A stretch of 64,000 bases of DNA from Nitrospirota bacterium (GCA_016212165.1 JACRGY010000104.1:45836-109835), one strand, 5' to 3'. Numbered from the stretch's first letter, positions 11,836 to 52,319 are shown. Made by a program: numbers and translations. Notes: generated from the sequence alone by a model not told the origin.

Positions 11836-12502
11836 GTCAAGATTAAAGACCTGACCCCCTAATTTTCTACGTTTATCCCTTTATTTATCCCTTCCGCTGG
11901 TTGGCGGTTTTGAGCCGCTACGAATTATCTTTTTTTGTATCCTTATTTGTGAAGCAAGGTAAGGATTTCAACAATTCGATGGTTTTCTCCGAAATAGCAC
12001 CACCTTGTTCAATCAGAATAAGATTTTTTTGAGAGATTTTAATGAGGCGCTGAAATATATAGAAAACTCCGGCTTGAAATAGACAGAAACTACCCAGGAG
12101 GATGGTCATGAGAGATGATCGAGTCAATGGTTCTGATGATGTAAACTCTCTTATCAAAATCAAGGTGACGAACAAAAGGGAAATTCCATATATAATTTTC
12201 CAGAAAATGAGAGCGACAGAGCGCTTAGCGTGGGCTTCGCTTTGTGCATACTTTATCTTTATATTAATGATTGCGACTATAGCAGCTACAATTAAGCCTG
12301 TCAAAACGCCAATCACTATTGTAGTAAGTATATTGGAAATAATCATAGCGCTCCTTTGTTTGCGGAGAGTGAATAAGCTCCTTCGATTTTTGAAACGTTA
12401 TAGGAACGGTAGCATAACTTTAAATGGGTCGTCAATAAAAAAATAGCTTGACGTTATCTACTGAAGCTTACATTTATTTAAGGGGACAGTCGTCCCCTTT
12501 TC
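11836..12502. mobile_element. Putative non-autonomous single-gene cassette bounded by GTCA..TGACCCC and GGGACAG..TTTTC end motifs
   Basis: Left gtcaagattaaagacctgacccc (11836-11858); right aggggacagtcgtccccttttc (12481-12502). The same pair bounds 48708-52204. Confidence 0.5.
11918..12346 (-). CDS. Hypothetical membrane protein, about 3 TM helices
   Basis: AT-rich ORF with AAAGGAG RBS before the ATG and three hydrophobic segments; no family recognised. Confidence 0.7.
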   Translation of the reverse strand: MIISNILTTIVIGVLTGLIVAAIVAIINIKIKYAQSEAHAKRSVALIFWKIIYGISLLFVTLILIREFTSSEPLTRSSLMTILLGSFCLFQAGVFYIFQRLIKISQKNLILIEQGGAISEKTIELLKSLPCFTNKDTKKDNS

Positions 12503-12547
12503 TGCTCTTTAATGTTTCACATTTATCATTAGCTGGGCGTCAACTTT

Positions 12548-12580
12548 GAGATTGCCACGGACTTTGTCCTCGCAATGACA
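12548..12580. repeat. Short palindromic repeat (GAGATTGC...CGCAATGAC type)
   Basis: gagattgccacggactttgtcctcgcaatgaca forms a hairpin. Confidence 0.5.
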
Positions 12581-12614
12581 TCAAAAGAAATACTTTTCAA
12601 TGGTAATCCCCACT

Positions 12615-12672
12615 AAACCTGACCAATCCGCTCAACTAAATACTTGACAAGGTTAGTAGGGTATTTTAAAAT
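12615..12672 (+). promoter_or_regulatory. iscR promoter with two tandem 25-bp type-1 IscR-like boxes
   Basis: aaacctgaccaatccgctcaactaa (12615-12639) and atacttgacaaggttagtagggtat (12640-12664) resemble type-1 IscR sites; TTGACA-N17-TAAAAT. Confidence 0.7.
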
Positions 12673-12678
12673 TATCCT

Positions 12679-13128
12679 ATGCTCAGGTTATCTACAAAAG
12701 GACAGTATGGCGTGCGGGCCATGTTCGAAATAGCCAATGGCTATCCTGATAAGCCGGTTACTATAAAAGAGATATCGGAAAAACAGGCTGTTTCCGTTGC
12801 CTATCTCGAACAGATACTCAATAAGCTCAGGAATGGAGGGCTTATAAAAAGCATTAAGGGGCCGGGCGGCGGCTACCTGCTGAATAAAAAACCCGAGAAA
12901 ATAAGTATCAGTGCAATCCTTAAGGAACTCGAAGGGCCTGTTGCCATCACATCCTGTCTGGATCCGAAGGAGGGATGTGTCAGGGTGGACGGGTGTGTTA
13001 CTTATATGCTCTGGAAATCTCTCGGAGAAAAGATAGAGGGGTTTCTGGATACGGTCTCTCTGAAGGACTTGATTACAGGCGCGCTTTTAGAAAGAACGGC
13101 CGGGAAAATTAAGAAAAAGGCCTGCTAA
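12679..13128 (+). CDS. iscR: Rrf2 family Fe-S regulator (IscR-like)
   Basis: LSTKGQYGVRAM, YLEQIL, SIKGPGGGY, three Cys (CLDPKEGCVRVDGC); heads the iscS-iscU operon. Confidence 0.85.
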   Translation: MLRLSTKGQYGVRAMFEIANGYPDKPVTIKEISEKQAVSVAYLEQILNKLRNGGLIKSIKGPGGGYLLNKKPEKISISAILKELEGPVAITSCLDPKEGCVRVDGCVTYMLWKSLGEKIEGFLDTVSLKDLITGALLERTAGKIKKKAC

Positions 13129-13135
13129 TTTAAAA

Positions 13136-13393
13136 ATGAAATTCGTAGAAGATTTGAAGGCAGATGTAACAACTGATATAGTTTATATGATGTGCCCGAT
13201 GCACCTGCTGAAGCTGGAAGAGAAGATACACGAACTTGACGATGGACAGATACTGGAAATCATGACAGACTATGACGGAGCGCTTGAAGATATTCCGGGC
13301 TGGTGTGAAAAGACAGGCAATGAATTTTTAGGGATTAAGGAAACGGAAGATTTTTATAAATTTTATATAAGAAAGAAGGTGCGTAAGCAATGA
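13136..13393 (+). CDS. TusA family sulfur carrier
   Basis: D....MCPM...LEIMTD....DIPGWC...G fold pattern. Confidence 0.85.
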   Translation: MKFVEDLKADVTTDIVYMMCPMHLLKLEEKIHELDDGQILEIMTDYDGALEDIPGWCEKTGNEFLGIKETEDFYKFYIRKKVRKQ

Positions 13394-14589
13394 GGAAGTG
13401 TTATTTCGACCATGTAGCAACGAATCCTCTGGATTCCCGCGTACTTGACGAAATGATGCCTTATTTCAAAGAGGAATTCGGCAATCCTTTGAGCATGTAT
13501 GAACTAGGTTCCAAGGCAAAGGAGGCAATAGATAATGCAAGAGTACAGGTTGCATCATTAATTGGTTCAAAGGCTTCAGAGATAGTTTTTACTGCAAGCG
13601 GCGCTGAGGCAAATAATTTTGCATTGCGGGGCATTGCGCTTGCAAGGCAGAATGAAGGAAAACATGTAATCGTGTCAAAGATGGAGCACCATTCAATATT
13701 GAATTCCGCAAGGTTTCTTGAGAAGATGGGATTCGTGGTCACTTACCTTCCGGTTGATAAACACGGTGTTGTTGACCCTGATACTGTGAAAAGGGCGATT
13801 ATAAAAGATACAACACTGATATCTGTAACCCATGCAAGCAGCGAAGTCGGCACAATAGAGCCGATAAAAGAAATAGCAGCCATTGCCAGAGAGAAAAAGA
13901 TAATCTTTCATACAGATGCAGTAGCAACAGCAGGAAACATACCCATTAATATAAAAGACCTAGGGGTAGACCTTCTGAGCATGGCAGCACATCAGTTCTA
14001 CGGTCCGAAGGGCGCCGGAGCGCTCTATGTAAGGGAAGGGCTGAGAATAGTCCCTCTGATATATGGCGGAATACAGGAAAATGGAAGAAGGGCCGGCACC
14101 GAGAACGTACCTGCTATTGCCGGTATGGGCAAGGCAGCTGAATTTGCCGTGAATGAGATGAATTCCCGGATAGAGCACGGCAGAAGATTAAGAGACAAAC
14201 TTTTGAAAATTAAATCAAGCGCTGAAAATGTTCATCTTACAGGCCATCCTGAAAACAGGCTTCCGGGCCATGCAAGTTTTTGTGTTGAATTTATAGAGGG
14301 CGAGGCAATGCTTCTGTTGCTGTCAGCCAAGGGTGTGTATGCCGCCAGCGGTTCTGCATGTTCATCAAAGGCATTGAAGGCATCGCCTGTCCTGCTGTCA
14401 ATGGGCATACCTTCTGGCCTTGCGCAGGGTTCGATAGTCTTTACGCTCGGCAAAGATAACACGGACGATGATATAGAATACCTGCTTGCCGAATTCCCGC
14501 AGGTGATAAAAAGGCTGAGAGAAATCTCCCCCTACGGAAAGGGCTGGGGGATAGAAGGAGAAGGTGGACAATGTATAGTGCAAAAGTAA
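13390..14589 (+). CDS. iscS: Cysteine desulfurase (IscS/NifS; HQFYGPKG has Gln where the PLP-binding Lys of HKxxGPKG normally sits)
   Basis: Motifs YFDHVAT, HTDAV, YGPKGAGAL, RAGTEN, ASGSAC. Confidence 0.88.
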   Translation: MRKCYFDHVATNPLDSRVLDEMMPYFKEEFGNPLSMYELGSKAKEAIDNARVQVASLIGSKASEIVFTASGAEANNFALRGIALARQNEGKHVIVSKMEHHSILNSARFLEKMGFVVTYLPVDKHGVVDPDTVKRAIIKDTTLISVTHASSEVGTIEPIKEIAAIAREKKIIFHTDAVATAGNIPINIKDLGVDLLSMAAHQFYGPKGAGALYVREGLRIVPLIYGGIQENGRRAGTENVPAIAGMGKAAEFAVNEMNSRIEHGRRLRDKLLKIKSSAENVHLTGHPENRLPGHASFCVEFIEGEAMLLLLSAKGVYAASGSACSSKALKASPVLLSMGIPSGLAQGSIVFTLGKDNTDDDIEYLLAEFPQVIKRLREISPYGKGWGIEGEGGQCIVQK

Positions 14590-14942
14590 TGGACCATTTT
14601 TCAAACCCGAGGAATGTGGGTGATATGCCTGATGCCGATGGTGTGGGCACAGAGGGGAATCCTACCTGCGGGGATGTGATGCAGATTTTTATAAAGGTCA
14701 AGGACGGGAAGATAGTTGATGCAAAGTTTAAGACATTCGGGTGTGGCGCAGCTATTGCCGTAAGCAGCATGATTACAGAGCTGGTTAAGGGCAAGACTCT
14801 CGAAGAGGCATTGGCTATATCAAAGGAAACAGTGGCAAATGAATTGGGGGGGCTGCCCGCCCAGAAGATGCATTGCTCAAACCTTGGCGCAGATGCACTC
14901 AAAAAGGCTATTGAAGATTATAGAAGCAAGAACAAAACATAG
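14571..14942 (+). CDS. iscU: Fe-S scaffold protein IscU/NifU-N
   Basis: Motifs YSAKVMDHF, GNPTCGD, KTFGCG, KMHCS. Confidence 0.95.
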   Translation: MYSAKVMDHFSNPRNVGDMPDADGVGTEGNPTCGDVMQIFIKVKDGKIVDAKFKTFGCGAAIAVSSMITELVKGKTLEEALAISKETVANELGGLPAQKMHCSNLGADALKKAIEDYRSKNKT

Positions 14943-14943
14943 A

Positions 14944-15327
14944 CTGAACTGCGTAAGCGGTGCAGGAATTGTTGAGACACTGATAGTTATCATAGTCATC
15001 AGTATTTTGGCAGTTGTGGTCATTGACAGGTATAATAGTATTGTCTGGGAGGCAAAAAAGGTTGCGCTCAGGGCAGAACTGAATAACCTCAGGCAGGCTA
15101 TCCAGCTTTTTAAAATAACAAAAGGCAGATACCCTGAAAGTCTTAAAGAGCTTATTACAGAACATATTGTTGCGCCATATAAAGATACACTGATCAGCGC
15201 CAGGTATCTGGAGCCTTATTCTGTTGATAAGGATTTGAATGTGCTGGACCCCTTTGATTTGCCTATTGCCTACGACCATTTGACCGGCAAGGTCCGGTCT
15301 CAGAAAAAAGGTTTTGAGGACTGGTGA
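14944..15327 (+). CDS. Pilin/pseudopilin-like protein (start uncertain)
   Basis: Prepilin-like G-A-G-I-V-E followed by a hydrophobic helix, then GRYPESLKEL and DPF, GspG-like. Confidence 0.65.
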   Translation: MNCVSGAGIVETLIVIIVISILAVVVIDRYNSIVWEAKKVALRAELNNLRQAIQLFKITKGRYPESLKELITEHIVAPYKDTLISARYLEPYSVDKDLNVLDPFDLPIAYDHLTGKVRSQKKGFEDW

Positions 15328-15413
15328 AGCTCCACTCCGTTAAAAAACTCCAATCGGGCTTTCCGGCGGGGTTTACAAATCTAATTTTAGACTGTTAATA
15401 TATCAGGGTTTTA

Positions 15414-15506
15414 GGAGAGGTGGCCGAGTAGGTCGAAGGCAGCCGCCTGCTAAGCGGTTGTGGGGGTAAAACTTCACCCAGGGTTCGAATCCCTGCCTCT
15501 CCGCCA
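15414..15506 (+). tRNA. tRNA-Ser(GCT)
   Basis: Acceptor stem ggagagg/cctctcc, anticodon loop ctGCTaa, long variable arm, GTTCGAAT, encoded CCA. Confidence 0.97.
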
Positions 15507-15585
15507 GTGAACAGAAGTGAGAAGTTAGAAGTAAATTGTAACTTTTAACTTATAACTATATAATTTTTTTTAAAGGAGGTTCTAA

Positions 15586-16122
15586 ATGAACAAAAAGCTT
15601 ATGGCAGTAGCGCTCAGTGTTTTGCTTGTGGGTTCTTTTGCCTGCAAGAAAAAAGAACAGCAGCCTCTTCCGCAGACACCGGGTACACCTGGGATGGGGG
15701 CACTTCCTCCGGGACATCCTCAGCAAGGACAGGGAAACCAGGGCATAACCATGCCCAAGGGCGATCTCCAGGTTATTGTCCCTGCTAATGTAAAGGGTAA
15801 ATGGGGCGCTGTTAAGATTGTTGTTGAGGACAAGGCAACGAAAAAAGCGCAGGAATTCACTGTTAAACTTAACAGCGATCTGCAGATTCCAAATTCTAAC
15901 CTGAAAGTAGTTGTAGGAGAGTTTCTGCCTGATTTCAAGATGGATGTCGGCACAATAACTTCGATATCAAATGAGCCAAATAATCCGGCAGTTAGCATTA
16001 AGGTATTTGAAGGCGGCAAGGAAGTATTTAAGGGATGGCTCTACGCAAAGTTCCCTGCGATTCATCCGTTTGAGCATCCTAAAGTCGGCCTGGGCCTTAA
16101 AGAAGGAATTAAGAAGGGATAG
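15586..16122 (+). CDS. Lipoprotein with Pro/Gly/Gln linker (DUF2155-like C-terminal domain)
   Basis: Lipobox SFAC-KKK, strong RBS, FLPDF...NPA...FKGWL...FEHP. Confidence 0.75.
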   Translation: MNKKLMAVALSVLLVGSFACKKKEQQPLPQTPGTPGMGALPPGHPQQGQGNQGITMPKGDLQVIVPANVKGKWGAVKIVVEDKATKKAQEFTVKLNSDLQIPNSNLKVVVGEFLPDFKMDVGTITSISNEPNNPAVSIKVFEGGKEVFKGWLYAKFPAIHPFEHPKVGLGLKEGIKKG

Positions 16123-16123
16123 C

Positions 16124-16200
16124 GCGCCCTTAGCTCAGCTGGATAGAGCGTCGGACTACGAATCCGCAGGCCGGGGGTTCGAATCCCTCAGGGCGCGCCA
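16124..16200 (+). tRNA. tRNA-Arg(ACG)
   Basis: Acceptor gcgccct/agggcgc, TAGCTCAGCTGGATAGAGC, anticodon loop ctACGaa, GTTCGAAT, CCA; 77 nt. Confidence 0.97.
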
Positions 16201-16270
16201 GTATAAGGCGCTTGGAGGATTAGCTGAATGCTCCTGAAGGATTGGGCTATTTATTCTAGGATTGGTTTTG

Positions 16271-16313
16271 AAAAAGGGTTTGTCCCGAAAGCCTTCGGGA
16301 TGAACCCTTTTTT
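16271..16313 (+). terminator. Intrinsic terminator, copy A of a duplicated hairpin
   Basis: aaaaagggtttgtcccgaaagccttcgggatgaaccctttttt. Confidence 0.85.
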
Positions 16314-16393
16314 GTTTGTTTTTGATGGCAGCCCGTGACCTGACAATTGCTTTTTCAGGGATTAATATTTAAAATTGAACCAGGAGATTTTAA

Positions 16394-16708
16394 ATGAAGA
16401 AGAATTGCTGGGAAGTTAAGAAGTGCGGGAGGGAACCGGGGGGAGTTAATGTAAAAGAGCTGGGGGTGTGTCCTGCAGCCACTGAGGACAGGCTTGATGG
16501 CGTTCACGAAGGTAAAAACGCAGGGAGGGCATGCTGGGTAGTAGCCGGCACATTCTGTAAAGGTGAAGTTCAGGGATTTTTTGCCAGGAAGTATAAGGAT
16601 TGCGAGAAGTGTGATTTTTATCAAATGGTCAGGAAAGAGGAAGGCGCAAAGTTTACATTCTCATATGTTCTTTTAAATATGATAGGCTGGAAAGAAAAAG
16701 GCTCTTAA
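16394..16708 (+). CDS. Small Cys-rich two-CW domain protein
   Basis: NCWEVKKCGRE...CPA...GRACWVVAGTFC...CEKCDFY; AGGAG RBS. Confidence 0.8.
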   Translation: MKKNCWEVKKCGREPGGVNVKELGVCPAATEDRLDGVHEGKNAGRACWVVAGTFCKGEVQGFFARKYKDCEKCDFYQMVRKEEGAKFTFSYVLLNMIGWKEKGS

Positions 16709-16739
16709 ATGACCGGGCTATAGGTTTGGGTTGATTTTT

Positions 16740-16783
16740 AAAAGGGGTTTATCCCGAAAGCCTTTGGGATAAACCTCTTTTTT
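16740..16783 (+). terminator. Intrinsic terminator, copy B of a duplicated hairpin
   Basis: aaaaggggtttatcccgaaagcctttgggataaacctctttttt. Confidence 0.85.
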
Positions 16784-16824
16784 GTCAGGCTTGATATGCT
16801 GTTATCAGTCTGTGGAGGAGAAGA

Positions 16825-17070
16825 ATGGTCAGTGTGACTTTTTATCTTAAGGAAGGGTGCTGGATTTGCGATGCTACGCAGGAGATGCTAAACGGGCTTA
16901 CGGTAAAGTATGACCTTAAGGTTACAAAGGTTCATATTGACTCAAGCGATGAATTGTATGAGATGTACAGGTTTGATATCCCTGTGTTTGAATTCAGGGA
17001 CGGGTCAACACTTCACGGGCATATCAGGAAGAAAGATTTACTGAAGAAATTTGAAGAAAATAAGGAATAA
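16825..17070 (+). CDS. Glutaredoxin-like protein (DUF836-like)
   Basis: CWIC redox motif, YRFDIPV, 81 aa. Confidence 0.8.
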   Translation: MVSVTFYLKEGCWICDATQEMLNGLTVKYDLKVTKVHIDSSDELYEMYRFDIPVFEFRDGSTLHGHIRKKDLLKKFEENKE

Positions 17071-17086
17071 AAAAGCTGGTTATAAT

Positions 17087-17545
17087 ATGGACATGAAAGA
17101 ACAGGATATATATTTTATGAAACTGGCGCTTGAGGAGGCCGGCATTGCTTTTTCAGAGGGAGAGGTTCCCGTAGGAGCTGTATTGGTGAGCGAAGGCGAT
17201 ATTATTTCAAAGGCCCATAACACGCGTGAGGCATCAAAAGACCCGACTGCACACGCAGAGATACTTGCAATACGAAAAGGAGTAGAAAAGAGCGACAGCT
17301 GGCGGTTAAGCAATGCCATGCTTTATGTAACAAAAGAACCCTGCATCATGTGTGCAGGTGCGATGGTTAATGCAAGAATTAAGAGGCTTATTTACGGTTG
17401 TAAAGATGAAAAAGGCGGCGCAGCCAGGAGCCTGTATCATCTTCTTTCGGATAAGAGGCTTAATCATCAGGTGGAGATAGTCTCAGGTTTTCTTGAGGAT
17501 GAATGCGCAGGGATATTGAAAAGGTTTTTTCAGGAGAAAAGATAG
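17087..17545 (+). CDS. tadA: tRNA adenosine(34) deaminase
   Basis: Motifs GEVPVGAV, HAE, EPCIMC; ATG at 17087 or 17093. Confidence 0.95.
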   Translation: MDMKEQDIYFMKLALEEAGIAFSEGEVPVGAVLVSEGDIISKAHNTREASKDPTAHAEILAIRKGVEKSDSWRLSNAMLYVTKEPCIMCAGAMVNARIKRLIYGCKDEKGGAARSLYHLLSDKRLNHQVEIVSGFLEDECAGILKRFFQEKR

Positions 17546-17683
17546 TTTCAGAAGAGATGCATATAGTATTCTCGCTCTATGCCTGTATTTTATCTGTATT
17601 CCTTAATTTATTGTCTTGTTGTAAACTAAAAACTGTTCACTATCCGCTTTAAGCTGACTGCTGAACGCTGATAGCTTTGATTT

Positions 17684-17773
17684 GGAGGGGTGCCAGAGCG
17701 GTTGAATGGGACGGTCTCGAAAATCGTTGTGGGGGCAACTCCACCCAGGGTTCGAATCCCTGCCCCTCCGCCA
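17684..17773 (+). tRNA. tRNA-Ser(CGA)
   Basis: Acceptor ggagggg/cccctcc, anticodon loop ctCGAaa, long variable arm, CCA. Confidence 0.96.
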
Positions 17774-17848
17774 GAAAAGTTAGAAGGGTAAAGTGAAAAG
17801 TTAAATGAAGAAAAGTTTTAAAACTCTTAACTTCATAGAGGAGGGAAG

Positions 17849-18892
17849 ATGGACATTAATATAAAGAAGATACTTATCCCTGCAATTATAGCCCTGTCGT
17901 CCATATCCGTATTACTCATAATCAGGGGGATTAGCTTCAGATTGCTCCACAGATGGGCTGAAAAGACGGCGACGAAGCTTGACGACATAATAATCATGGT
18001 ACTTAAAACGCCGTCTGTTTACTGGTGCGTTGCCATAGGGCTTTATACAGGGATTGCAATTTCGGAACTTCCTGAAAGATACGTCTTTTATCTAAGCAGG
18101 ACGATTAATGTGATTGTAATATTATCCATTACCATTGCAGCGGCAAACCTTGCGGGTAAGATATTCAGAAATTATGTCCAGAAATCCAACCTTCCTGTTC
18201 CAACAACAGGCCTTGCATACGGGATATTAAAGGGAACAATACTGGCCCTGGGGCTCTTGATAATACTGAGTTTCCTCGGGATTTCTATAACGCCCTTAAT
18301 TACAGCATTAGGTGTTGGAGGCCTTGCAGTTGCGCTTGCGCTTCAGGATACCCTTGCAAACCTTTTTGCTGGGATGCATATCCTTGTGGAAAAATCCATC
18401 AGGGTAGGTGATTTTATCAAACTCGAAACAGGGCAGGAAGGCTATGTTGAAGACATAACCTGGAGGACAACAAGGATAAAGATGCTTCCAAATAATATGG
18501 TCGTGATTCCAAATAATAAGCTTGCACAGAGCATCGTCACAAATTATTATCTGCCTGAAAAAAGGATGTCTCTGTCTATCCCAGTCTCTGTCAGTTATAA
18601 TTCTGATATAGATAAACTTGAAAGAATCCTCACCGAAGAGGCAAAGAAGGCGGTTGAAGAAATTTCAGGACTTCTTGGGGATCCTGAGCCTGCTGTAAGG
18701 TTTATCCCCGGATTTGGCGAAAGCTCCCTTGATTTTACCCTGGTATGTCATGTGCGGGAATTTACAGACCAGTTTCCTGTTCAGCATGAACTGAGAAAGA
18801 GGCTATTTAAGAGATTTAAAGAAGAAGGCATTGAAATTCCATTCCCTCAAAGGACAGTATACCTTAGAGAAGATAAGAACTGGAAGCCGTAA
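17849..18892 (+). CDS. MscS family mechanosensitive channel
   Basis: Motifs GLAVALALQDTLANLFAG, GDFIK, IPNNKL, FGESSLDF, IEIPFPQR. Confidence 0.93.
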   Translation: MDINIKKILIPAIIALSSISVLLIIRGISFRLLHRWAEKTATKLDDIIIMVLKTPSVYWCVAIGLYTGIAISELPERYVFYLSRTINVIVILSITIAAANLAGKIFRNYVQKSNLPVPTTGLAYGILKGTILALGLLIILSFLGISITPLITALGVGGLAVALALQDTLANLFAGMHILVEKSIRVGDFIKLETGQEGYVEDITWRTTRIKMLPNNMVVIPNNKLAQSIVTNYYLPEKRMSLSIPVSVSYNSDIDKLERILTEEAKKAVEEISGLLGDPEPAVRFIPGFGESSLDFTLVCHVREFTDQFPVQHELRKRLFKRFKEEGIEIPFPQRTVYLREDKNWKP

Positions 18893-18975
18893 TATTTACA
18901 CCGGTTGTTTTTTAAATTCACTCAGATATCCAGACAGGGATTGACATAAATTTCAGGTTTCCGATAATTTATTTA

Positions 18976-19070
18976 GCAGAGAGGAGTAGTTTGGGGAAGT
19001 GGGTATCGTCAATATGGCTGAAGGCCTGATACCACTGGTCAGATAAACCTGGTATAAGCAGGACCTTTAT
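18976..19070 (+). ncRNA. yybP-ykoY (Mn2+) riboswitch aptamer
   Basis: gaggagtag...atcgtcaata...ctggt...agcaggacctt hallmarks; TTGACA..GATAAT promoter at 18941-18968; upstream of a P-type ATPase operon. Confidence 0.8.
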
Positions 19071-19105
19071 CACGATTAAATATAATGTTGTGGTAGGGTT
19101 TTTTT
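19063..19105 (+). terminator. Riboswitch expression-platform terminator
   Basis: acctttatcacgat...gttgtggtagggt followed by a T run, overlapping the 3' strand of the aptamer. Confidence 0.7.
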
Positions 19106-19121
19106 ATGGAGGGAGTCTTAG

Positions 19122-19574
19122 ATGGAAAATTTGTTGAGTAAAAGCAAGCATTTGATATTGATTGCAGTTGTCGCTTTATTTATTGCATCTGCAGCCGCAT
19201 TTTTGTGGGGAGCGGCAAAGGTTCTTTTCCTTATAATAAATCTTGTTAAAACTTACGGCAAGGATCCATTATCTGCAATAGCTTTCATAGAGGTTATGGA
19301 CACATTTCTTATAGCTGCTGCCCTTCTCATATTTGCGGTCGGGATATATGAACTTTCCATAGAAGCTGTAAGTCTTCCTGAATGGCTTGTAATTAATGAT
19401 CTCCGGGACCTTAAGGCAAAGCTCAGCAGTATTGCAATACTTATTATGGTTTTTACATTTATAAGACATCTTGTAGAATGGAGAGACCCGCAGGGAACAT
19501 ATTACTTTGGCATTGCAGTGGCATTGGTTTCAGCATCGCTTGTAGCATTCAACCATTTTGACCGAAAAAGCTGA
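19122..19574 (+). CDS. YqhA/UPF0114 family membrane protein
   Basis: IEVMDTFLIA...GIYELSI...PEWLVINDLRDLKAKL; about 4 TMs. Confidence 0.85.
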   Translation: MENLLSKSKHLILIAVVALFIASAAAFLWGAAKVLFLIINLVKTYGKDPLSAIAFIEVMDTFLIAAALLIFAVGIYELSIEAVSLPEWLVINDLRDLKAKLSSIAILIMVFTFIRHLVEWRDPQGTYYFGIAVALVSASLVAFNHFDRKS

Positions 19575-43887: not shown

Positions 43888-45528
43888 ATGGAGAGCAGGC
43901 ATAAGCGGATACTGATAAACGCAATCTACCCGGAAGAAAAAAGGGTCGCGATTGCAGAGGGGGAGACCCTTGTTGATTTCTACGTGGAACTATCGGAAAA
44001 GGAGCATCTCAAGGGGAATATTTACAAGGGCATCGTTATCAGGATTGAGCCGGGCCTTCAGGCGGCCTTTGTAGATTTCGGCCAGAAGAAACACGGCTTC
44101 CTTCAGTTCAGGGAGATAAGCCGTGAATACTTCAAGGAGAAAAAGGAAGGCCGGCAGAGGCCGAGGATACAGGATGTTATTGAAAAGGGGCAGGAGATTG
44201 TTGTGCAGGTCGAGAAGGACGCGCGTGACACAAAGGGCGCGAGCCTGACCACTTTTATCTCGCTTCCGGGGAGGTACATAGTTATGCTGCCGGGGCAGGA
44301 ACGGGTCGGCATTTCAAGAAAGATAGAGGCGCTCGAGGACCGCGAGAGGCTAAAGGAGATATTTAAATCTCTGAAGCTTCCGAAGCATACCGGGTTCATA
44401 CTCCGCACTGCCTGCAGCGAGCGGACAGGAGAGGAGTTGAACAACGACCTCAAGTATCTGACAAAGCTTTGGGACAGGATACAGGCCGAGGCAAAAAAGG
44501 CCTCTGCGCCTGCGCTTATATACAAAGAGCACGATATCGCGCTACGCACGGTCAGGGACTACCTTACTTCAGACGTTAGCGAGGTGCTCATTGACGACCC
44601 CGCGACATTTAAGAAGACAAAGGATTTCCTGCGGAAGGCGGCTCCGTGGCTGAAAACGAGCATCCGCCTCTACAGCGGGAAGAAACCGATTTTTTCCCAT
44701 CACGATATTGAAGGACAGATAGCAAAGCTTGGCGAGCGCTACGTCCACCTTCCTTCAAAGGGCTACTTTGTGATAGATAAGGCCGAGGCGCTCACAGCAA
44801 TAGACGTCAACTCCGGCAGAAGCAGGAAAGAAGAACATATCGAAGGAACTGCTCTCAGGACCAATCTTGAGGCAGCGGACGAGATAGCGCGCCATCTCAG
44901 GCTCAGAGATATCGGCGGCCTTATCGTAATAGATTTTATTGATATGGAGTCATTAAAAAACCGGCGGGAAGTTGAGAACAGGCTGGAAGAGGCAATGAGC
45001 GCTGACAAGGCCCATTTCGAGCTGACAGGGATATCCAAATTCGGGCTTATCGAGATGACGCGCGAGCGCCTGCGGCCTGCATTTGCCCAGGCCGTGAGCC
45101 GTGTGTGCGAAACCTGCGAGGGCACAGGGGCCATAAAATCGGATGAATCAATCGCGATAGCAGCGTTGAAGAATATCCAGGCGCGCGCTGCCAGGGGAGA
45201 CTGTGATTCCATTGCGTGCGACATGCCTGTCGGAAGCATGAACTATCTCATCAACACGAAGAGAGAAGACCTGCTGAGGATAGAGAAGGACTTTGGCATC
45301 CCGGTTAAGCTTCGCGCGGACAATAGCCTGTCAGGCAGGTTCCTGCTTAAGGCCGTCGAGAAAAAGACTGAGGCTGTGCAAGAGGCAGGCATTGTTTCCA
45401 GTGAGGGCGGCATTCAGGGTTCAGCGGCAACGGCATCAGGGCAGGCCATGTTGGAAGGGCAGGGCGGTCAGAGGAGAAAAAGAAGAAGGCGCAGGAAGAA
45501 AAAAAGTCCTGAAGAAATAAGCGGATGA
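43888..45528 (+). CDS. Ribonuclease E/G family
   Basis: KGNIYKG, AAFVDFG, KGASLT, AIDVNSG, LRDIGGLIVIDFIDM, CxxCxGxG Zn-link; short Arg-rich tail; ATG 43888 with RBS. Confidence 0.93.
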   Translation: MESRHKRILINAIYPEEKRVAIAEGETLVDFYVELSEKEHLKGNIYKGIVIRIEPGLQAAFVDFGQKKHGFLQFREISREYFKEKKEGRQRPRIQDVIEKGQEIVVQVEKDARDTKGASLTTFISLPGRYIVMLPGQERVGISRKIEALEDRERLKEIFKSLKLPKHTGFILRTACSERTGEELNNDLKYLTKLWDRIQAEAKKASAPALIYKEHDIALRTVRDYLTSDVSEVLIDDPATFKKTKDFLRKAAPWLKTSIRLYSGKKPIFSHHDIEGQIAKLGERYVHLPSKGYFVIDKAEALTAIDVNSGRSRKEEHIEGTALRTNLEAADEIARHLRLRDIGGLIVIDFIDMESLKNRREVENRLEEAMSADKAHFELTGISKFGLIEMTRERLRPAFAQAVSRVCETCEGTGAIKSDESIAIAALKNIQARAARGDCDSIACDMPVGSMNYLINTKREDLLRIEKDFGIPVKLRADNSLSGRFLLKAVEKKTEAVQEAGIVSSEGGIQGSAATASGQAMLEGQGGQRRKRRRRRKKKSPEEISG

Positions 45529-45538
45529 TGCCTGCAGG

Positions 45539-45943
45539 ATGAAGTGGAAAACAATGAACCTGCCAACACGCCTTTACCTCATCAGCGCTATTATCCTGCT
45601 GGTTGGCCTGGGCAGCGCCCTCTGGATTTATCTTGCAGCCGGGGATAATTCTGAAAGCGTTTTGGGTTATGAAATATCAGGCGGGAATGCTTATCTCGTT
45701 GCGCCTGAAAATTCCAAAAAGTATGTACATGATTTAAAACTCATTGGTGGAAATGCGGCTGTGTTTGCGGATGAATTCAGCCGCTGGTTTATCGGGCTGT
45801 GGCATGGAAAATCACTCGCATTTACAACGGCCTGCATTGCCGGCTTTATATCCCTTGTGTTTTTCTTTGCTGCCAGAATCGCACTATCCCACTTAACATC
45901 CGGCGCCCGTGATGAAAATAACAGGGCCGGGAACGAGACTTGA
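45539..45943 (+). CDS. Hypothetical 2-TM membrane protein
   Basis: Two hydrophobic helices flanking SKKY.HDL..IGG.A...F..WF.GLWHG. Confidence 0.7.
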   Translation: MKWKTMNLPTRLYLISAIILLVGLGSALWIYLAAGDNSESVLGYEISGGNAYLVAPENSKKYVHDLKLIGGNAAVFADEFSRWFIGLWHGKSLAFTTACIAGFISLVFFFAARIALSHLTSGARDENNRAGNET

Positions 45944-45948
45944 AGCAG

Positions 45949-45981
45949 CTTTTGACTTTTGCATTTATGCTCTGTTGCTTT
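45949..45981 (+). repeat. 33-bp direct repeat copy B
   Basis: cttttgacttttgcatttatgctctgttgcttt. Confidence 0.85.
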
Positions 45982-46009
45982 TCCTTCTCAGATTTGATGT
46001 AATATCCTT

Positions 46010-46411
46010 ATGCTAGTTCAGTATGAGGACGAGTCCCAGACCAACCGCAAACATCAGAGATATCCGATTTCTGCGACGGCGTTGATAAGGATTAAAAATA
46101 AGGATAACTCTTCAATTGATACTTTGGTTGCAAATATTTCCAAGCCGGGGTTAGGGCTCTATTCATATGTCTCGATTCCGGATGGAACGCCTGTATCCAT
46201 AGAACTCTCTTTTATCGGAATAAAAGGGCTTGAAAAAGACACCATCGAAGGGAAGGTAATACACTCGTCAAAACTGGGCAGCCTTTATTATGTCGGCGTT
46301 TTATTCGATGAGGAAATAAATGCCGCGGCACAGCCCTTGTTATACGGACACTTCTGGAAAATAGTTGAGTTGGAGAAAATAATCTTCTTTAAGCGAATGC
46401 CGGTTGATTGA
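46010..46411 (+). CDS. Stand-alone PilZ domain protein
   Basis: RKHQR (RxxxR) and NISKPG (NxSxxG) motifs. Confidence 0.85.
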   Translation: MLVQYEDESQTNRKHQRYPISATALIRIKNKDNSSIDTLVANISKPGLGLYSYVSIPDGTPVSIELSFIGIKGLEKDTIEGKVIHSSKLGSLYYVGVLFDEEINAAAQPLLYGHFWKIVELEKIIFFKRMPVD

Positions 46412-46474
46412 AGCTCTCTTGCTTTAGAATTTTCATTTTGTGGATTTAAGAACCGAGCATCATCGAATGTCGGC

Positions 46475-48088
46475 CTAAAGTTTTTTCCCATTTTCGAGCA
46501 GCACAGCCATATCCTTTTTGTCCAATGGCTTCGAAAACAGATATCCCTGATAATAATCGCATTTCAACTTTCTCAATTCTTCTAGCTGATTAACCGCTTC
46601 GACCCCCTCAGCAATTACCTCCATTTTCATGTTATGAGCCATTGATATTATTGTTTTAACAATTTCCATTGCCCATTCATTGTCGCACATGGCCTGTATG
46701 AAAGATCGGTCTATTTTAAGAGCATCGAGTGGAAACTTATGAAGATACCCCAAAGAGGAATAACCTGTTCCAAAATCATCCATATGAACCTTTATATTCA
46801 GTTCCTTTAATTTCATGAATACGGCTGCTGCGATTTCAGGGTTGCGCATGATGACACTTTCAGTACTTTCCAGGTTCAGCTTATCCGGACTAAGCCCGGT
46901 TTCGTCCAGGACTTGTTTTATTGTATCTACAATATCGAGCGTGAACTGCCTTGTTGAGATATTCACGCTTATTGCCAGGCGCGAGAATGAGGGAAACTGC
47001 TCATGACATATAAGCATATGTCTGCAAGCTTCGCTGAGCACCCATCTGCCGATTGGGATTATCAGTCCCGTCTCCTCGGCAACAGGAATAAACTCAGCGG
47101 GCGGAATCAACTTTCCCTCCAAACATTTACAGCGCAAGAGGGCCTCAAATCCCGATAGTTCGTTGGTGTCACAAGAAATAATAGGCTGATAATTCAGGAA
47201 AAAATCGTTTTTTTCAACCGCCCGGCGCAAATTGTTTTCCAGTTTCAGATATGATGTCGCCTCGGTATGCAGGGTTTCATCGAAAATGACATAGCAATCC
47301 CTGCCAAGCTCTTTGGCCTTAAACACTGCGGTATCTGCGTCCCGCAGCATATCTTCGGGCTTCTCATAACCTGTTCTGCTTATGGTTATCCCGATGCTTG
47401 CAGTAATATATACTTCACGTTCGGATACGTTTATTGAAAGTTTGATTATGTTTTGAAGCCGCTTTGCCACGCTTATTACATCCATGATATTCCTGACATC
47501 TGACAACAAGATTGCAAACTCGTCTCCTCCGAACCTTGCAACCGTATCAGGTTCTGCAACTCTCGCGACCGTATCATAGGGGCGTATTTGCTTTTTCAGC
47601 CTTCCGGCTATTTCTATCAGGAGTTGGTCTCCAACCCCATGGCCCAGGCTATCATTTACATTTTTAAAACGGTCGAGGTCTAAAAAAAGAATAGCAAACA
47701 TATGGTCTTTTTGCCGGTGTACACGAGAGATTGATGCCATTATCTCGTCTAAAAACAATGTCCGGTTAGGCAATTGAGTCAGCACATCATAATGGGTGAC
47801 TTGTCTCAAGTGCAACTCGGTAGTTTTTTTTATGAGCTTAGTCCGTTCATTAATAAGATGACTTATTACGGTTAAGATAAATGGGGCCAACAATATTAAG
47901 GCATGAAACTTGATACCGTTTTGCTCTATAGATAAAAAGTGTTGTAAAACTGTGATGGTGAACCCCTGCTCTTGAGTAATGTTATAGATATAAAGACCAA
48001 GAATAATCCAGGCAAGGATAACGGTATAGGTTGCCAGCCTGGATAGTAATCCATATTCCGGAGTCTTTATTTGTGGAATGTCGCTCAA
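46475..48088 (-). CDS. Membrane-anchored GGDEF-EAL protein
   Basis: 2 TMs, FGGDEF, EALLR, DDFGTGYSS, KIDRSF, AEGVE, QGY; start uncertain. Confidence 0.92.
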   Translation of the reverse strand: MSDIPQIKTPEYGLLSRLATYTVILAWIILGLYIYNITQEQGFTITVLQHFLSIEQNGIKFHALILLAPFILTVISHLINERTKLIKKTTELHLRQVTHYDVLTQLPNRTLFLDEIMASISRVHRQKDHMFAILFLDLDRFKNVNDSLGHGVGDQLLIEIAGRLKKQIRPYDTVARVAEPDTVARFGGDEFAILLSDVRNIMDVISVAKRLQNIIKLSINVSEREVYITASIGITISRTGYEKPEDMLRDADTAVFKAKELGRDCYVIFDETLHTEATSYLKLENNLRRAVEKNDFFLNYQPIISCDTNELSGFEALLRCKCLEGKLIPPAEFIPVAEETGLIIPIGRWVLSEACRHMLICHEQFPSFSRLAISVNISTRQFTLDIVDTIKQVLDETGLSPDKLNLESTESVIMRNPEIAAAVFMKLKELNIKVHMDDFGTGYSSLGYLHKFPLDALKIDRSFIQAMCDNEWAMEIVKTIISMAHNMKMEVIAEGVEAVNQLEELRKLKCDYYQGYLFSKPLDKKDMAVLLENGKKL

Positions 48089-48203
48089 TATTATCGCTTG
48101 CCTTAGTCAGTTTTTTGGGTCTCAGGGTTAGTTGATGTTCTAGCAGCATAAAATGTGCAGCTAGCATCAGAAAGTAAAACTTCATATTGGCTCATAGCAG
48201 TCT

Positions 48204-48413
48204 TTAGACTTTCGGTTGTTGAGTTTCAGTTAATTCCCTGTACCTGTCTTTAAGCCTGTTCAGATGATATTCTTCCCCCCTGGCAAATTCCTCAAAGAGT
48301 TTCTTACTTTCGGGATCCGAAGTATTCATCGCGGCCTTTTGATAAAAGCCGAATGCTTCGCTTTTGTTCTCAATAGCCATTTTAAAGATGATAAAAAGGT
48401 CCTCCCTGTCCAT
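48204..48413 (-). CDS. Small rubrerythrin/ferritin-like protein
   Basis: AIENK.EA..FY..AA......K.LF..FA..E..H; GGAGGGGG RBS. Confidence 0.75.
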   Translation of the reverse strand: MDREDLFIIFKMAIENKSEAFGFYQKAAMNTSDPESKKLFEEFARGEEYHLNRLKDRYRELTETQQPKV

Positions 48414-48771
48414 GCCCCCTCCCTGCCGAACAGATTTTACACTATATATCGGCAGCGCAAAGATAAACTTTAATCTAAAAGGGGGTTATTTTCTCTAGGA
48501 ATATCGAGAAGTTAGGACTAGAAGGTGAAGTCCGCAAGTTCTTGTTAAGGCTGTGTAGAAATACTATTAAAGTCCCCGCTTCTGCGCTTGCCCGCTTGCA
48601 GCCTTCAGCGCTAAACACCTTGTCAAAATAGTCCTTGCTTTAACAGGCATAGCGTATTATTATTAATTAATTTTTTGCGGGATGATTGATGGAAGAAAAG
48701 GAGAGATGTCAAAATGCAAGATTTGACCCCAAAAGCCCGTAAAAACACTGAAGCCGTGAAAGGAGAATGTT

Positions 48772-48999
48772 ATGGAGCGATACAAAAATCTTGGAGGCAG
48801 TTCCGGGGTGGCGGCCTACGAAGTTGGAGATGATTCTATAAAGGTTCAGTTTGATGATGGGTCTCTTTATCTGTACAACTACCAAAGCGCAGGGAGCAAC
48901 GATATTGAGCAAATGAAACGGTTGGCTATTGCGGGGAGGGGGTTGAATAGTTTTATAAGCAGGGTTGTTAAAAAAAGGTATGCCTCAAAACTGAGATAA
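48772..48999 (+). CDS. KTSC-like small protein
   Basis: SGVAAYE....I.VQF.DG..Y.Y...........M..LA..G.GLNSFI, KTSC-like pattern; AAAGGAGA RBS. Confidence 0.65.
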   Translation: MERYKNLGGSSGVAAYEVGDDSIKVQFDDGSLYLYNYQSAGSNDIEQMKRLAIAGRGLNSFISRVVKKRYASKLR

Positions 49000-49076
49000 A
49001 CATTATCTTTCTGAGGTGCCTGCTGAGGAAGTCAAAATCTAATTATCTACAAACACATGATTAATGATTGCTAACA

Positions 49077-49538
49077 ATGGAAAATTTAAATCTTAAAATA
49101 TATTTTGAAGAACCTAAAAAGTTTGAGATACAAAATATTAAGCCGCTTTCGGGGATTATAGGGCTATATTTTATTTTTTTAACAAACACACAAATTCCCT
49201 ACCCGTTTGCTACTTCAAAACTTGTCTACATAGGTATGAGTGAAAAGAGAACAAACAGTATCGGAAGTCGGTTAATGGGTCATTTTGATGGTCAGTCCGG
49301 CAACATCGGGTTAACTAGCTATAGGAAAGTTGAACAATTGAATTTTACTTATTTAAATTTTGAAATGCTAAAAACAGTCTGGAAATACAGAATAGAAGAC
49401 TTGGAAAGCTATTTCATTCTCGATTTTGTGAAACAATATGGAGTATATCCAATTTGCAACAATAAAACGGGCTTTGAAATTTTAGAGTTAAATCTTGCAG
49501 TAAGCCTTGAAATTGACTGGAGTTATTTTAAAAAATAA
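49077..49538 (+). CDS. GIY-YIG family nuclease
   Basis: GLYFI...LVYIGMS...SRLMGH...LES...PICN gives the GIY, YIG, Arg, Glu and Asn catalytic set. Confidence 0.8.
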   Translation: MENLNLKIYFEEPKKFEIQNIKPLSGIIGLYFIFLTNTQIPYPFATSKLVYIGMSEKRTNSIGSRLMGHFDGQSGNIGLTSYRKVEQLNFTYLNFEMLKTVWKYRIEDLESYFILDFVKQYGVYPICNNKTGFEILELNLAVSLEIDWSYFKK

Positions 49539-49544
49539 AGACTT

Positions 49545-49736
49545 ATGGATAATCAAGTAAAAAGTGGAAAAGAAATCCTTGATGATTTTTTTGGCAACAT
49601 TACGAACTTGCCAGGTGTGGACAGAGAAATTGCCGAAAAAATTCTCGAATTATACAAGGCAGGGAAACTGACGAGTACAAACATAGCTAATGCGCTTGTA
49701 ACATTAAGGGAAGAAAATGCCAGCGGTAAAAATTAA
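49545..49736 (+). CDS. 63-aa helical hypothetical protein
   Basis: Starts 6 nt after the nuclease stop and overlaps the ATPase start by 20 nt; amphipathic helical pattern. Confidence 0.7.
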   Translation: MDNQVKSGKEILDDFFGNITNLPGVDREIAEKILELYKAGKLTSTNIANALVTLREENASGKN

Positions 49737-52146
49737 AAATATTCATATACAGGGATTAAGGGGTGTAAAAGATGAACTAGTACTGCCTTTGGAGGAAAAA
49801 TCCATTGTTCTTTATGGCGACAATGGTACAGGCAAAAGCAGCATCACAGATTCCATAGAGTGGTTTTACTACGGCAAAATTGCACATTTATCAGGCGAAG
49901 AAATCGGCAAATTAGGCTTAGAAGCTTTGCGAAATATTTCGTTGCCAGACGATAAAAAGGGTTCATTGGAAATAAAATATTCAAATAGTAGCTTAAATTG
50001 TTCTAAAAATATTGAAATTAAAAAAGGGATACTCAAAACTGATTCTACCAATAAAAATACTTCATTCGTTGAATTCATCAAAGCATCGCAAAGGGAAAGA
50101 CTGATCCTGCACTATGCCGAGCTAGTCAATTTCATTTTAAGCACCAAAACAGAAAAATTAGCAAATGTATCTGAGATTATTGGTTTTTCGGAAGTAACCA
50201 GTACGAGAACAGTTTTGAAGAAAGCACTGAATGACTTGGCGAGAGAATTGAAAAATAAAAACCTTGACGGCACTATTAATATTCAACAGGGTAATCTTTT
50301 GAAGCAACTTAACCAAAACATTACATCGGAGCCGCATTTCATCAATGCGATAAACGAACTAATTTCGCCGCTAAAACTTGGCAAGAAGATCGAAAAATTC
50401 TCAGATATTAACGCTATTATTATGGCGATCAAAAAACCAACTGATAATACAATAATAGAACAGCAGAGTTTTTATTCAGGAATCAGAGACCATGTCGGAA
50501 AATTGAAACTGAAAATTGATTCATTTGATGAAGCATACAGGGAATACGAAACCCAATATAATAAGCTTTCTGGTGATGCAGACAACCTAAAAAAGATTAT
50601 TCTTAACGATCTTCTCGGTGCTGGAGAAAAAATATTAAAGGAAGGTCATTACACAGATAGTAGTTGTCCTCTATGCTTGCAGCCTAAAGACAGTAAATAT
50701 CTCCTCAAAGAGATACAAGAAAGAATAGATGACATTAAGAAAGTAAGGGCTGAACAGAAAAAATTATCAGATATTAAGACTCAATTCGAAGCCACAATAA
50801 AAGAAGTTGCTTATGATGTTAATGGACTATTGAAGAATAAGTATTTTATTGACCCGAGTAATGCGAAGTTAAAAGCTAAAGTTGAAATTGTCAAAAATGC
50901 CTTGTCGAAATATTCTCAAGAATTAATTGTTGATATTGCAGCCGACAAAAAGATAAAAACTTCAGCAGAGCTAAAGATAAAGCCAAACTCGCTTAATGAA
51001 GTTGAGGCAATTTGTAGTCAGAAATATGATCAGCTTAAATCACAGATAAAAGATGATAAGGCAACAGATATTGTCGTAAAGATTGAACTGTCGAAATCGG
51101 CTTATTCGCAGATTGAGGCTCTAAAAAAAGAAAAAGAATTAATTGAGGAACAAAAAGCCACTTTTGAAATTATTTATGCAGATTTTGTAAAGAAGCAAAA
51201 AGAGGGACTTGAATCATTCATCAATAATTTTTCAGGCATAATTAATGAATATTATCAATTCATGAATCCTGAAGAGCAGATAAAAGAGATAAAGCTGAAA
51301 ACCATAGAAAATGAAGATGAACTAGTCGGTTTGACAGTAAGCTTTAAATATTATGATTCTGAGGTCTCTCCACCCCACAAATATTTTAGTGAGTCTCATC
51401 TTAATTGTTTCGGATTAGCTTTTTTCCTCGCATCCGTGAGGGCATTTAACAAAGAGAATAAATTCATCTTGATGGATGATGTGATATCAAGTTTCGATGC
51501 AAACCATAGAAAGAGATTCGCTGATCTTTTGATTGAAAAATTTGCAGAGTATCAAATTATTTTGCTGACACATGAAAAACAGTGGTTTGATTATGTAAAG
51601 TCTGTTGTGCAAAATAAAAACTGGCAAATAAGCGAAATTAAATGGAGCGAAGCTAAAGGAGCTCATCTTGAGGAAAGCGCTGGCAGCCTTCGTCAAAGAA
51701 TAGAATATAAAATAACAAATAATGTAGATGACGACTTAGGTAATAATATAAGAGTTTATCTTGAGCATATATTGAAAAATATAGCTTCCACTTTGAAGGT
51801 CAAAGTTGAATTTCAATTCAACGATAAAAACGAAGATAGGATGTGTCATGAGTTACTTTCTGAGTTAAAAGGAAAAGCAGCTAAATCAAGCACAGATTTC
51901 ACTGTTTATTCACCTTTGTTCGGTAGAACGTTAGCCTCAACATTTATAGCCAATAAAGATTCTCATGACAGTTCATTTAACCCGAGCATGGGTGATTTAA
52001 AGGCTTTGTGGAAAGACGCTCAAGATATTGAAAATCTATTTTATTGTGTTACATGTCAAAAATTCGTTTCGCTAAAATATTATGATGAAGGCAATAAAAA
52101 AGTGAAATGCAAGTGTGGCGCTAAAGAATATTCATGGAAAAAATGA
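49717..52146 (+). CDS. Rad50/RloC-like zinc-hook ABC-ATPase with HEPN-like domain and C-terminal Zn ribbon
   Basis: Walker A GDNGTGKS, coiled coil with CPLC, signature FSESH, Walker B LMDDVISSFD, LLTH; then GNNIRVYLE...ANKDSH and CVTC...CKCG. Confidence 0.8.
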   Translation: MPAVKIKNIHIQGLRGVKDELVLPLEEKSIVLYGDNGTGKSSITDSIEWFYYGKIAHLSGEEIGKLGLEALRNISLPDDKKGSLEIKYSNSSLNCSKNIEIKKGILKTDSTNKNTSFVEFIKASQRERLILHYAELVNFILSTKTEKLANVSEIIGFSEVTSTRTVLKKALNDLARELKNKNLDGTINIQQGNLLKQLNQNITSEPHFINAINELISPLKLGKKIEKFSDINAIIMAIKKPTDNTIIEQQSFYSGIRDHVGKLKLKIDSFDEAYREYETQYNKLSGDADNLKKIILNDLLGAGEKILKEGHYTDSSCPLCLQPKDSKYLLKEIQERIDDIKKVRAEQKKLSDIKTQFEATIKEVAYDVNGLLKNKYFIDPSNAKLKAKVEIVKNALSKYSQELIVDIAADKKIKTSAELKIKPNSLNEVEAICSQKYDQLKSQIKDDKATDIVVKIELSKSAYSQIEALKKEKELIEEQKATFEIIYADFVKKQKEGLESFINNFSGIINEYYQFMNPEEQIKEIKLKTIENEDELVGLTVSFKYYDSEVSPPHKYFSESHLNCFGLAFFLASVRAFNKENKFILMDDVISSFDANHRKRFADLLIEKFAEYQIILLTHEKQWFDYVKSVVQNKNWQISEIKWSEAKGAHLEESAGSLRQRIEYKITNNVDDDLGNNIRVYLEHILKNIASTLKVKVEFQFNDKNEDRMCHELLSELKGKAAKSSTDFTVYSPLFGRTLASTFIANKDSHDSSFNPSMGDLKALWKDAQDIENLFYCVTCQKFVSLKYYDEGNKKVKCKCGAKEYSWKK

Positions 52147-52319
52147 AGTGAGAGGAAAAATAAATAGGAAAGGAAAAATAAATAGGGACAGCGACCGGTT
52201 TTTCACAAGCGAGCAAAATTGCAAGAGAGGAAGTGTGCAAGTGAGCAAGTTTGCAAGCGTGGTCGCCTCAGGCGACTCTACGCTGCGCTTCGAAAAGCGC
52301 AGCGGGCAGAATTAAATCC

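Follow-up and report, generated by a model that had tools for sequence, protein, structure and literature searches.

Probable solo TIRYT-type repeats beside two hypervariable intergenic spots in a Nitrospirota genome

Two AT-rich segments in the genome of a Nitrospirota bacterium carry unrelated genes and seem to share the same end motifs, which raises the question of whether they belong to a family of cassettes moved by an enzyme that they do not encode. The segments lie in a stretch of 64,000 nucleotides (nt) (GCA_016212165.1, JACRGY010000104.1:45836-109835), which we call the window; positions given without a contig name are counted from its first letter. A first-pass annotation had placed left motifs at 11836-11858 (L1) and 48708-48730 (L2) and right motifs at 12481-12502 (R1) and 52184-52204 (R2), all four correctly, and had read each pair as the two ends of a transposase-less cassette. 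We found that L1, L2 and R2 are probably solo inverted repeats of the TIRYT/TIRtron type beside hypervariable intergenic spots, not matched cassette ends, and put the probability of this reading at about 0.75. The two "cassettes" would then be two such spots with mosaics of short repeats at their borders, and these mosaics would include solo TIRYT repeats of two classes.

The source genome (G000) measures 2.79 Mb and is assembled in 202 contigs, and the sequencing runs that hold the window are labelled as groundwater and wetland metagenomes. For comparison we used a genome of the same genus (G001), two sister genomes (G002 and G003) and a family set of 20 genomes. The first-pass annotation was right that both cargos are AT-rich and without a recombinase gene: guanine-plus-cytosine (GC) content is 0.378 for 11836-12502 and 0.342 for 48708-52204 relative to 0.433 for the window, and no recombinase gene was found within either interval. 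Both segments differ from G001, whose flanks there are 94-97% identical. At Rfam gathering scores, the window holds only three tRNAs (15414-17770), and there is no match at the motifs.

TIRYTs, or TIRtrons, are RAYT-like genes with terminal inverted repeats that carry the motif GGGGWSAS and form moderately abundant repeat families (Di Nocera et al. 2013, PMC3733652, available text). Most of them fall into subclass 2.1, some have a Bac_DnaA_C tail, and no REP-like hairpins adjoin them (Quentin et al. 2018, PMC6006769, available text). In G000, we found a single intact Y1/HUH transposase gene, which is of the class to which R2 belongs (class A). This gene, on contig C110, encodes 227 amino acids (aa) and matches Pfam Y1_Tnp with an E-value (E) of 3e-14; against the NCBIfam model REP_Tyr_transpos it scores 67 bits, under the 80-bit cut-off, with two sister proteins at 87-88 bits. 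The HUH histidines H66 and H68 and the tyrosine Y125 are invariant in all 25 of 25 aligned homologues. A search of solved structures with a single sequence gave no match, and a search with the transposase profile succeeded, the best match being E. coli TnpA-REP (4er8, E 1.4e-06), with ISDra2 TnpA at E ~1e-3. Of the 20 family genomes, 16 have homologues of the C110 protein, and one genome may give as many as 7 matches.

The C110 gene is framed by a perfect 18-nt inverted repeat, one copy lying 50 nt upstream and its reverse complement directly after the stop codon. The first 14 nt of this repeat are common to R2, and the class A core at C110 differs from R2 by 2-3 nt. Positions 52180-52198 match 18 of 19 nt in the 3' repeat at locus L097, which holds the closest named homologue, a transposase with 68% identity from a Nitrospirae metagenome-assembled genome. 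As a separate observation, G000 has a second Y1-like gene on contig C140 (locus L059, 99-695, minus strand; 198 aa; REP_Tyr_transpos 63.5 bits), and its 22-nt flanking repeats are direct, not inverted.

At 30 homologous loci of the family, a core lies within 80 nt of 45 of the 60 gene ends, in inverted orientation, and by script count 39 of these cores are of the GGGAC type (class A) and 6 of the GGGTCA type (class B). Class A proteins have 221-245 aa and inverted flanks of the form ...TA-GGGACA(C/G)-6 nt-AT-rich-TTGACA; class B proteins have 308-326 aa, a DnaA-C-like tail and inverted flanks of the form GGGGTCA-...-TTGACAAA. At the transposase genes, the TTGACA side points toward the gene and the variable side outward, and in the 5' repeat this -35-like TTGACA sits inside at a constant distance. 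Taken across phyla, 64 loci had full flanks; an inverted repeat of at least 11 nt was found in 51 of these, nearly always with a GGGGAC- or GGTGAC-type core. The first-pass annotation, which had suggested a RAYT-like Y1/HUH enzyme, was thus right about the kind of enzyme, since inverted R2-like repeats flank the C110 gene and cores stand at most of the gene ends.

L1 and L2 belong to class B. We made a class B profile solely from the flanks of 6 class B transposase genes of other genomes, with L1 and L2 left out, and searched the whole genome with it: L1 was the best match (E 0.0033) and L2 the third (E 0.16). In a smaller sequence set, the values were E 3.5e-05 and E 0.0017, respectively. L1 is on the minus strand (GGGGTCAGGTCTTTAATCTTGAC), as is L2 (GGGGTCAAATCTTGCATTTTGAC). 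The reverse complement of L1 fits GGGGWSAS at 8 of 8 positions, and the reverse complement of L2, R2 and the C110 repeat each fit at 7 of 8. A recount confirmed that L1 and L2 are identical at 18 of 23 positions, and by our own arithmetic about 0.7 matches of this quality to a given 23-mer are expected by chance in G000. Hence, the kinship of L1 and L2 follows from the independent transposase-flank profile, which finds both, and not from the 18/23 match. The GTCA..TGAC palindromes that had been described in them exist as 6-bp stems only and are weak, with folding z scores of -0.14 (L1) and -1.8 (L2).

R2 (52181-52204 with its full repeat, plus strand; TAGGGACAGCGACCGGTTTT) is a solo class A repeat, of the TAGGGACAGCG... 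type that flanks the transposase genes of 221-245 aa. Across the 20 family genomes, we counted 26 occurrences of the pattern GGGACA-N4-CCGGTTTT, 7 of them in G000, relative to one for the reversed control, and N4 takes three forms only. Four further near-copies of the core bring the R2-type copies in G000 to 11.

R1 had been grouped with R2 as a similar right motif, and this grouping does not hold. R1 (12480-12502 as a folded feature, plus strand) is an 8-bp hairpin followed by TTTTC, with a single-strand fold of -8.1 kcal/mol and a z score of -5.4, and R2 is unstructured as a single strand (z 0.37). Because R1 is a good hairpin and R2 is without structure, the two are different things. The class A profile does not detect R1 in the whole genome or in the smaller set, and R1 is detectable as a member of neither repeat class. 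A scan for strict intrinsic terminators did not call R1, which has too few T's, so from its fold we keep it as a terminator-like hairpin of the gene before it.

The short duplications that had been noted near one end of each segment are both present, and duplications of this kind characterise the outer edge of TIRYT-type repeats in general. On the outer side of L1, a 10-nt unit stands at 11872 and 11884 (11872-11893, period 12), 13 nt from the core; at R2, a 16-nt unit at 52153 and 52171 (52153-52186, plus strand, period 18) abuts the outer edge. Among 84 gene-flanking ends from 42 loci of many phyla, 23 have a tandem copy of 8-22 nt that ends within a few bases of the core's outer edge; the same test gave 4 of 84 for the inner side and 5 of 82 for positions 90 nt farther outward. 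Solo copies behave similarly, with 11 of 26 having an outer-edge duplication relative to 2 and 1 in the controls. The feature recurs from Nitrospirae-type genomes to Proteobacteria and Acidobacteria. The duplicated unit varies from copy to copy and often takes in the first bases of the core. Since the units are copy-specific, they are a record of local events rather than a shared binding site. They probably arose by a nick that a Y1 enzyme would make in single-stranded DNA at the outer edge, followed by replication slippage.

Solo copies would be scattered through intergenic DNA in the manner of REP elements, usually just past the stop codon of an accessory gene of the toxin-antitoxin or defence kind, and within repeat mosaics that border segments differing between strains. 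By their positions, 9 of 11 R2-type copies in G000 follow an open reading frame (ORF) of the same strand at a distance of 0-125 nt. R2-type solos are preceded by the following genes: LmuB-like, CopG, TumE, TIR, a 176-aa ORF next to HicAB and a 577-aa ORF in a GIY-YIG/RAMA island; those with an annotation are mostly toxin-antitoxin or defence genes. In our proposal, the most likely route of cargo exchange would be ordinary recombination within the repeat mosaics or close to them, rather than excision at L and R.

Several results weigh against the reading of L1, L2 and R2 as solo TIRYT repeats beside such spots. No class B gene was found in the 202 contigs of G000, which hold only a 35-residue remnant (C78:9441-9545) with an adjoining repeat. 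L1 and L2 are thus without a cognate enzyme in this assembly, although the gene could fall outside the 202 contigs. The class B profile was built from 6 sequences, and the class A profile gives R2 just 9.9 bits (E 2.9 genome-wide). The solo R2 subfamily (...CCGGTTTT) equals no gene-flanking repeat that we saw, and those continue ...CCCATATT, ...GCGACTATTTT or ...GCGCCCGTTTT. Judged from sequence, the action of any TIRYT on L1, L2 and R2 is putative. Finally, at 5 of 6 loci the limit of the variable DNA falls within about 100 nt of a core, on a side that is not fixed, and at two of them (C53 compared with G001, C183 compared with G002) it coincides exactly with the core's outer edge. The repeats may have a causal role in cargo exchange, for which the data are association only.

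Such a role is the substance of an alternative in which solo repeats are resident nick sites of a Y1/HUH enzyme, toxin-antitoxin and defence genes are inserted or swapped at their outer edge, and the duplications are the scars. It draws on C53 and C183, where the conserved core's outer edge is the precise point at which homology begins, with different DNA beyond it, on the concentration of the tandem duplications at this same edge, and on the location of most R2-type copies shortly past same-strand ORFs, the upstream genes with an annotation being mostly of the toxin-antitoxin or defence kind. The variable segments of G001 and G002 also contain several cores. However, on C134 (compared with G002) and on C124 and C90 (both compared with G001) the cores are inside the variable DNA, whose limit is 14-92 nt past their inner end, and on C82 the core is midway in a 1254-nt insertion for which G001, G002 and G003 provide clean empty sites. 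In addition, a related strain (run X4, below) loses R2 along with the cargo. As far as the available literature describes them, REP-type repeats lie downstream of genes anyway, and the intergenic position scored here is without a matched control. We regard this alternative as improbable. If it were true, the solo repeats would be a single-strand-nickase counterpart of the integron attI site across many phyla and a mechanism for the turnover of defence islands.

Several further observations concern these loci or other parts of G000. The insertion on C82 (locus L022, 3486-4739) takes the place of the dapA terminator hairpin and has no counterpart in G001, G002 or G003; directly after its R2-type core, 27 nt of the right-hand target stand a second time. 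We rejected two minus-strand ORFs at this insertion as paralogues, since their likeness is limited to 18 residues that derive from the duplicated 27-nt target. On C124 (locus L020, 3403-4156), an antitoxin and PIN module has a 90% identical counterpart at another location in G001 (C44:77185-77934). Hence, this toxin-antitoxin cassette itself has moved, and cargo also moves by other routes. A MITE-like repeat (miniature inverted-repeat transposable element) of about 125 nt on C124 (L020, 1673-1798) and C183 (locus L023, 8476-8618) recurs dozens of times in G001 and G003, with 72-100% identity. Many contig ends of G000 (for example, C53:122443, outside the window, C11:24785 and C34:1912) carry a multi-copy insertion sequence. 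Its 16-nt subterminal word occurs 47 times, one of its ends has two tandem subterminal sites, and its target duplications look to be 15-16 bp, directly after the target GTCAA (two matched flank pairs).

The original proposal, that L and R are ends of transposase-less cassettes, cut out and inserted in trans by a Y1/HUH enzyme in the manner of an integron, is largely refuted. It was right in that the motifs are of the Y1-transposase-repeat type and that both segments are variable between strains and low in GC, and it gains from directly oriented pairs of R2-type solos that bracket small accessory genes 1.1-1.5 kb apart (C124, C134 and G001). Yet the supposed partners are of different classes, one of which has no enzyme gene that we could find in G000, and R1 is outside both. 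Their orientation is also the opposite of that at transposase genes: the inner TTGAC end of L1 and the inner end of L2 face left and the inner end of R2 faces right, in each case off the cargo, which lies outside the repeats.

The empty site at the second segment points the same way. In the strain of run X4, one 1212-nt contig joins 48508 to 52295 (64 nt plus 1148 nt, with 16 differences in the 1148), and depth is zero over 48706-52122. The missing segment (48509-52294) is 3786 nt long, and its edges are an imperfect 8-nt direct repeat (TCGAGAAG / TCGAAAAG). Insertion limits had been expected at the motifs; those of the X4 empty site instead lie outside both, 200 nt from L2 on the left and 90 nt from R2 on the right. 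In runs X1, X2 and X6, no contig joins the two sides of this segment, and we gave their coverage gaps no weight. In G001, where the flanks of site 2 are 94-95% identical, homology runs up to 48612 and begins again exactly from the R2 core (52184) rightward, and between these limits G001 carries a 367-aa ORF, a glyoxalase gene, a second R2-type core and an extra AAA_14/DUF4143 gene. Because G001 keeps the R2 core and its right side with other cargo and is without L2, R2 is part of the resident flank and L2 part of the variable DNA. As a candidate third L motif, we considered the 8-mer TTGACCCC at the matching place in G001 and rejected it, since the class B profile misses it.

At site 1, G001 diverges at the stop codon of the PIN gene (11779) and returns to homology at ~12610, so that the variable segment (11780-12609) extends from this stop codon to the Rrf2 promoter. 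Neither L1 nor R1 is present there in G001. In place of the G000 cargo, G001 has 2.9 kb with four other ORFs and G003 has 1.3 kb with three, the gene set of G003 ending in an adjacent pair of class A and class B cores. Movement in integron-like fashion also fails on its enzyme and its site, since we found no integron integrase (the best TIGR02249 match scores 79.8 bits against a cut-off of 265) and no attC-like fold.

A likeness that is fortuitous or due to common regulatory signals, such as a -35-like TTGAC box or terminators, and unconnected with any transposase is the best reading for R1, a plain hairpin, and would gain from the 18/23 match, which is not rare alone, and from the overlap of L1 with a minus-strand promoter-like match (TTGACT-16-AATAAT, 10/12), yet it is very unlikely for L1, L2 and R2, given the ranks of L1 and L2 with an independent profile, the excess of the R2 pattern over its control and the inverted copies that flank Y1 genes.

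The cargo of site 1 is a 114-aa ORF (12102-12446, plus strand) without a family match. By eye it has two hydrophobic stretches, which makes the lone membrane-protein gene described earlier a probable one only. Between R1 and the right limit of this variable segment lies a short dispersed repeat (12540-12586; ...gccacggactttgtcctcgcaatgac...), with copies that are 87-97% identical in at least 6 relatives. To the left, another dispersed repeat of about 100-150 nt (10853-11000) sits between an AAA_14 gene and a Phd/PIN pair; we saw no TIRYT-type core in it by eye, and it has copies at 78-90% identity on contigs C156, C163, C123, C117, C97 and C9 and also in G001-G003. The AAA_14/DUF4143 ATPase gene itself (9409-10722, minus strand) is missing from the syntenic place in G001. 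Genes of the AAA_14/DUF4143 family also adjoin R2-type cores, at 52320-53501 and twice in G001.

Site 2 carries a three-gene operon, the one described earlier as defence-like. The first gene (49068-49538, plus strand) encodes 156 aa and is possibly a GIY-YIG nuclease, a lead that comes from an Atlas feature score of 0.99 to clusters named GIY-YIG, without a Pfam or PADLOC match; copies that are 64-71% identical adjoin an SMC-like gene in 3 other genomes. The second gene (49545-49736, plus strand; 63 aa) has copies of 40-53% identity at the same place in 3 other genomes. The third (49717-52146, plus strand; 809 aa) encodes an SMC-like ATPase resembling LmuB of Lamassu (PADLOC LmuB, E 2.9e-32; Pfam SMC_N, E 8.9e-14). 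In a Lamassu system, LmuB is accompanied by an effector protein and a third, small protein; here, no model for LmuA or LmuC gave a match. Among 300 sampled other genomes of the phylum, SMC-like homologues occur in 4, and the three-gene unit (49068-52146) is conserved in the same gene order in 3, which belong to the same taxonomic order, with 40-71% identity. The operon may be a compact Lamassu-type system, and its GC content of 0.33 is consistent with acquisition from elsewhere, which forms part of our preferred explanation. In the three other genomes with the operon, neither class profile matches within 1.5 kb of it, which also speaks against the cassette proposal. Upstream of the operon, a 75-aa ORF (48772-48999, plus strand) has no family match and is not kept with the operon in other genomes.

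The edges of site 2 are themselves mosaics. The left arm (48509-48612) is shared by G000 and G001 and missing from the X4 strain, and the homology of G001 ends with it. It is followed by a dispersed repeat of about 100 nt (48630-48730, minus strand), which has L2 at its end, two more copies on C176 and others in relatives. A sigma-70 promoter that we suspected by eye in this repeat was dropped, because a scan of 48400-48900 called 0. The right arm (52205-52294, plus strand) consists of a GCAAG-rich stretch and two hairpins (z -4.8) and is present in G001 in diverged form and absent from the X4 strain. The hairpins span 52262-52304 and so cross the indel boundary at 52294, and the hairpin module is a dispersed repeat. 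We also rejected a family of islands bounded by such arms, since the arms are not repeated as units elsewhere in G000 and only modules of 15-23 nt recur.

What appeared to be a new cassette system resolves into a known, barely studied element; our full-text literature search found the names TIRYT and TIRtron only in PMC3733652 and PMC6006769. Three features may be of use to the field of HUH transposases, namely the outer-edge duplications, the -35-like box in the 5' repeat and the location of solo copies beside the limits of variable toxin-antitoxin and defence segments.

In integron cassettes, the attC site lies just past the stop codon of accessory genes that look promoterless. The repeats described here are similar in that they follow the stop codons of accessory genes and include some same-orientation pairs (C124 and C134). 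They are unlike integron cassettes in that there is no integrase, R2 lacks an attC-like imperfect palindrome and arrays reach at most two sites; moreover, the sequence after the R2-type core differs between copies, and R2 is unstructured.

IS200/IS605 elements have an enzyme of the same superfamily, as seen in the match of our profile to ISDra2 TnpA. Unlike the inverted repeats and proteins of 220-326 aa found here, they have subterminal hairpins and no terminal inverted repeats (PMC6006769, available text).

REP/REPIN-RAYT systems, as far as the available literature describes them, share with the present repeats the short, dispersed, intergenic copies mostly downstream of genes, a Y1 gene flanked by inverted copies and BIME-like mosaics. 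In contrast to REP elements, R2 has no hairpin, L1 and L2 have only a 6-bp stem, and neither a GTAG nor a CGTC tag is present. Copies number 7-11 in G000, not hundreds, and sister genomes have up to 7 transposases, compared to the typically single RAYT. A stable, tagged hairpin of 20-40 nt in high copy, which defines REP and REPIN elements, is thus not what we found in G000, where R2 has 7 exact copies.

The TIRtron is the remaining comparison. Among the features seen here, the outer-edge tandem duplications find no mention in the available text of PMC3733652 or PMC6006769, and in that same text we found neither the -35-like TTGACA in the 5' repeat, nor solo copies past toxin-antitoxin and defence genes in variable segments, nor class B solos in a genome devoid of class B genes. 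Some of the repeat features may already be shown in Figure 9 or Additional file 5 of PMC3733652 or in the supplementary figures of PMC6006769. As described in the available text of these two papers, TIRtrons have in common with the present system a Y1/HUH gene between inverted repeats with a GGGGWSAS-type motif, solo copies elsewhere and, in some cases, a DnaA-C-like tail.

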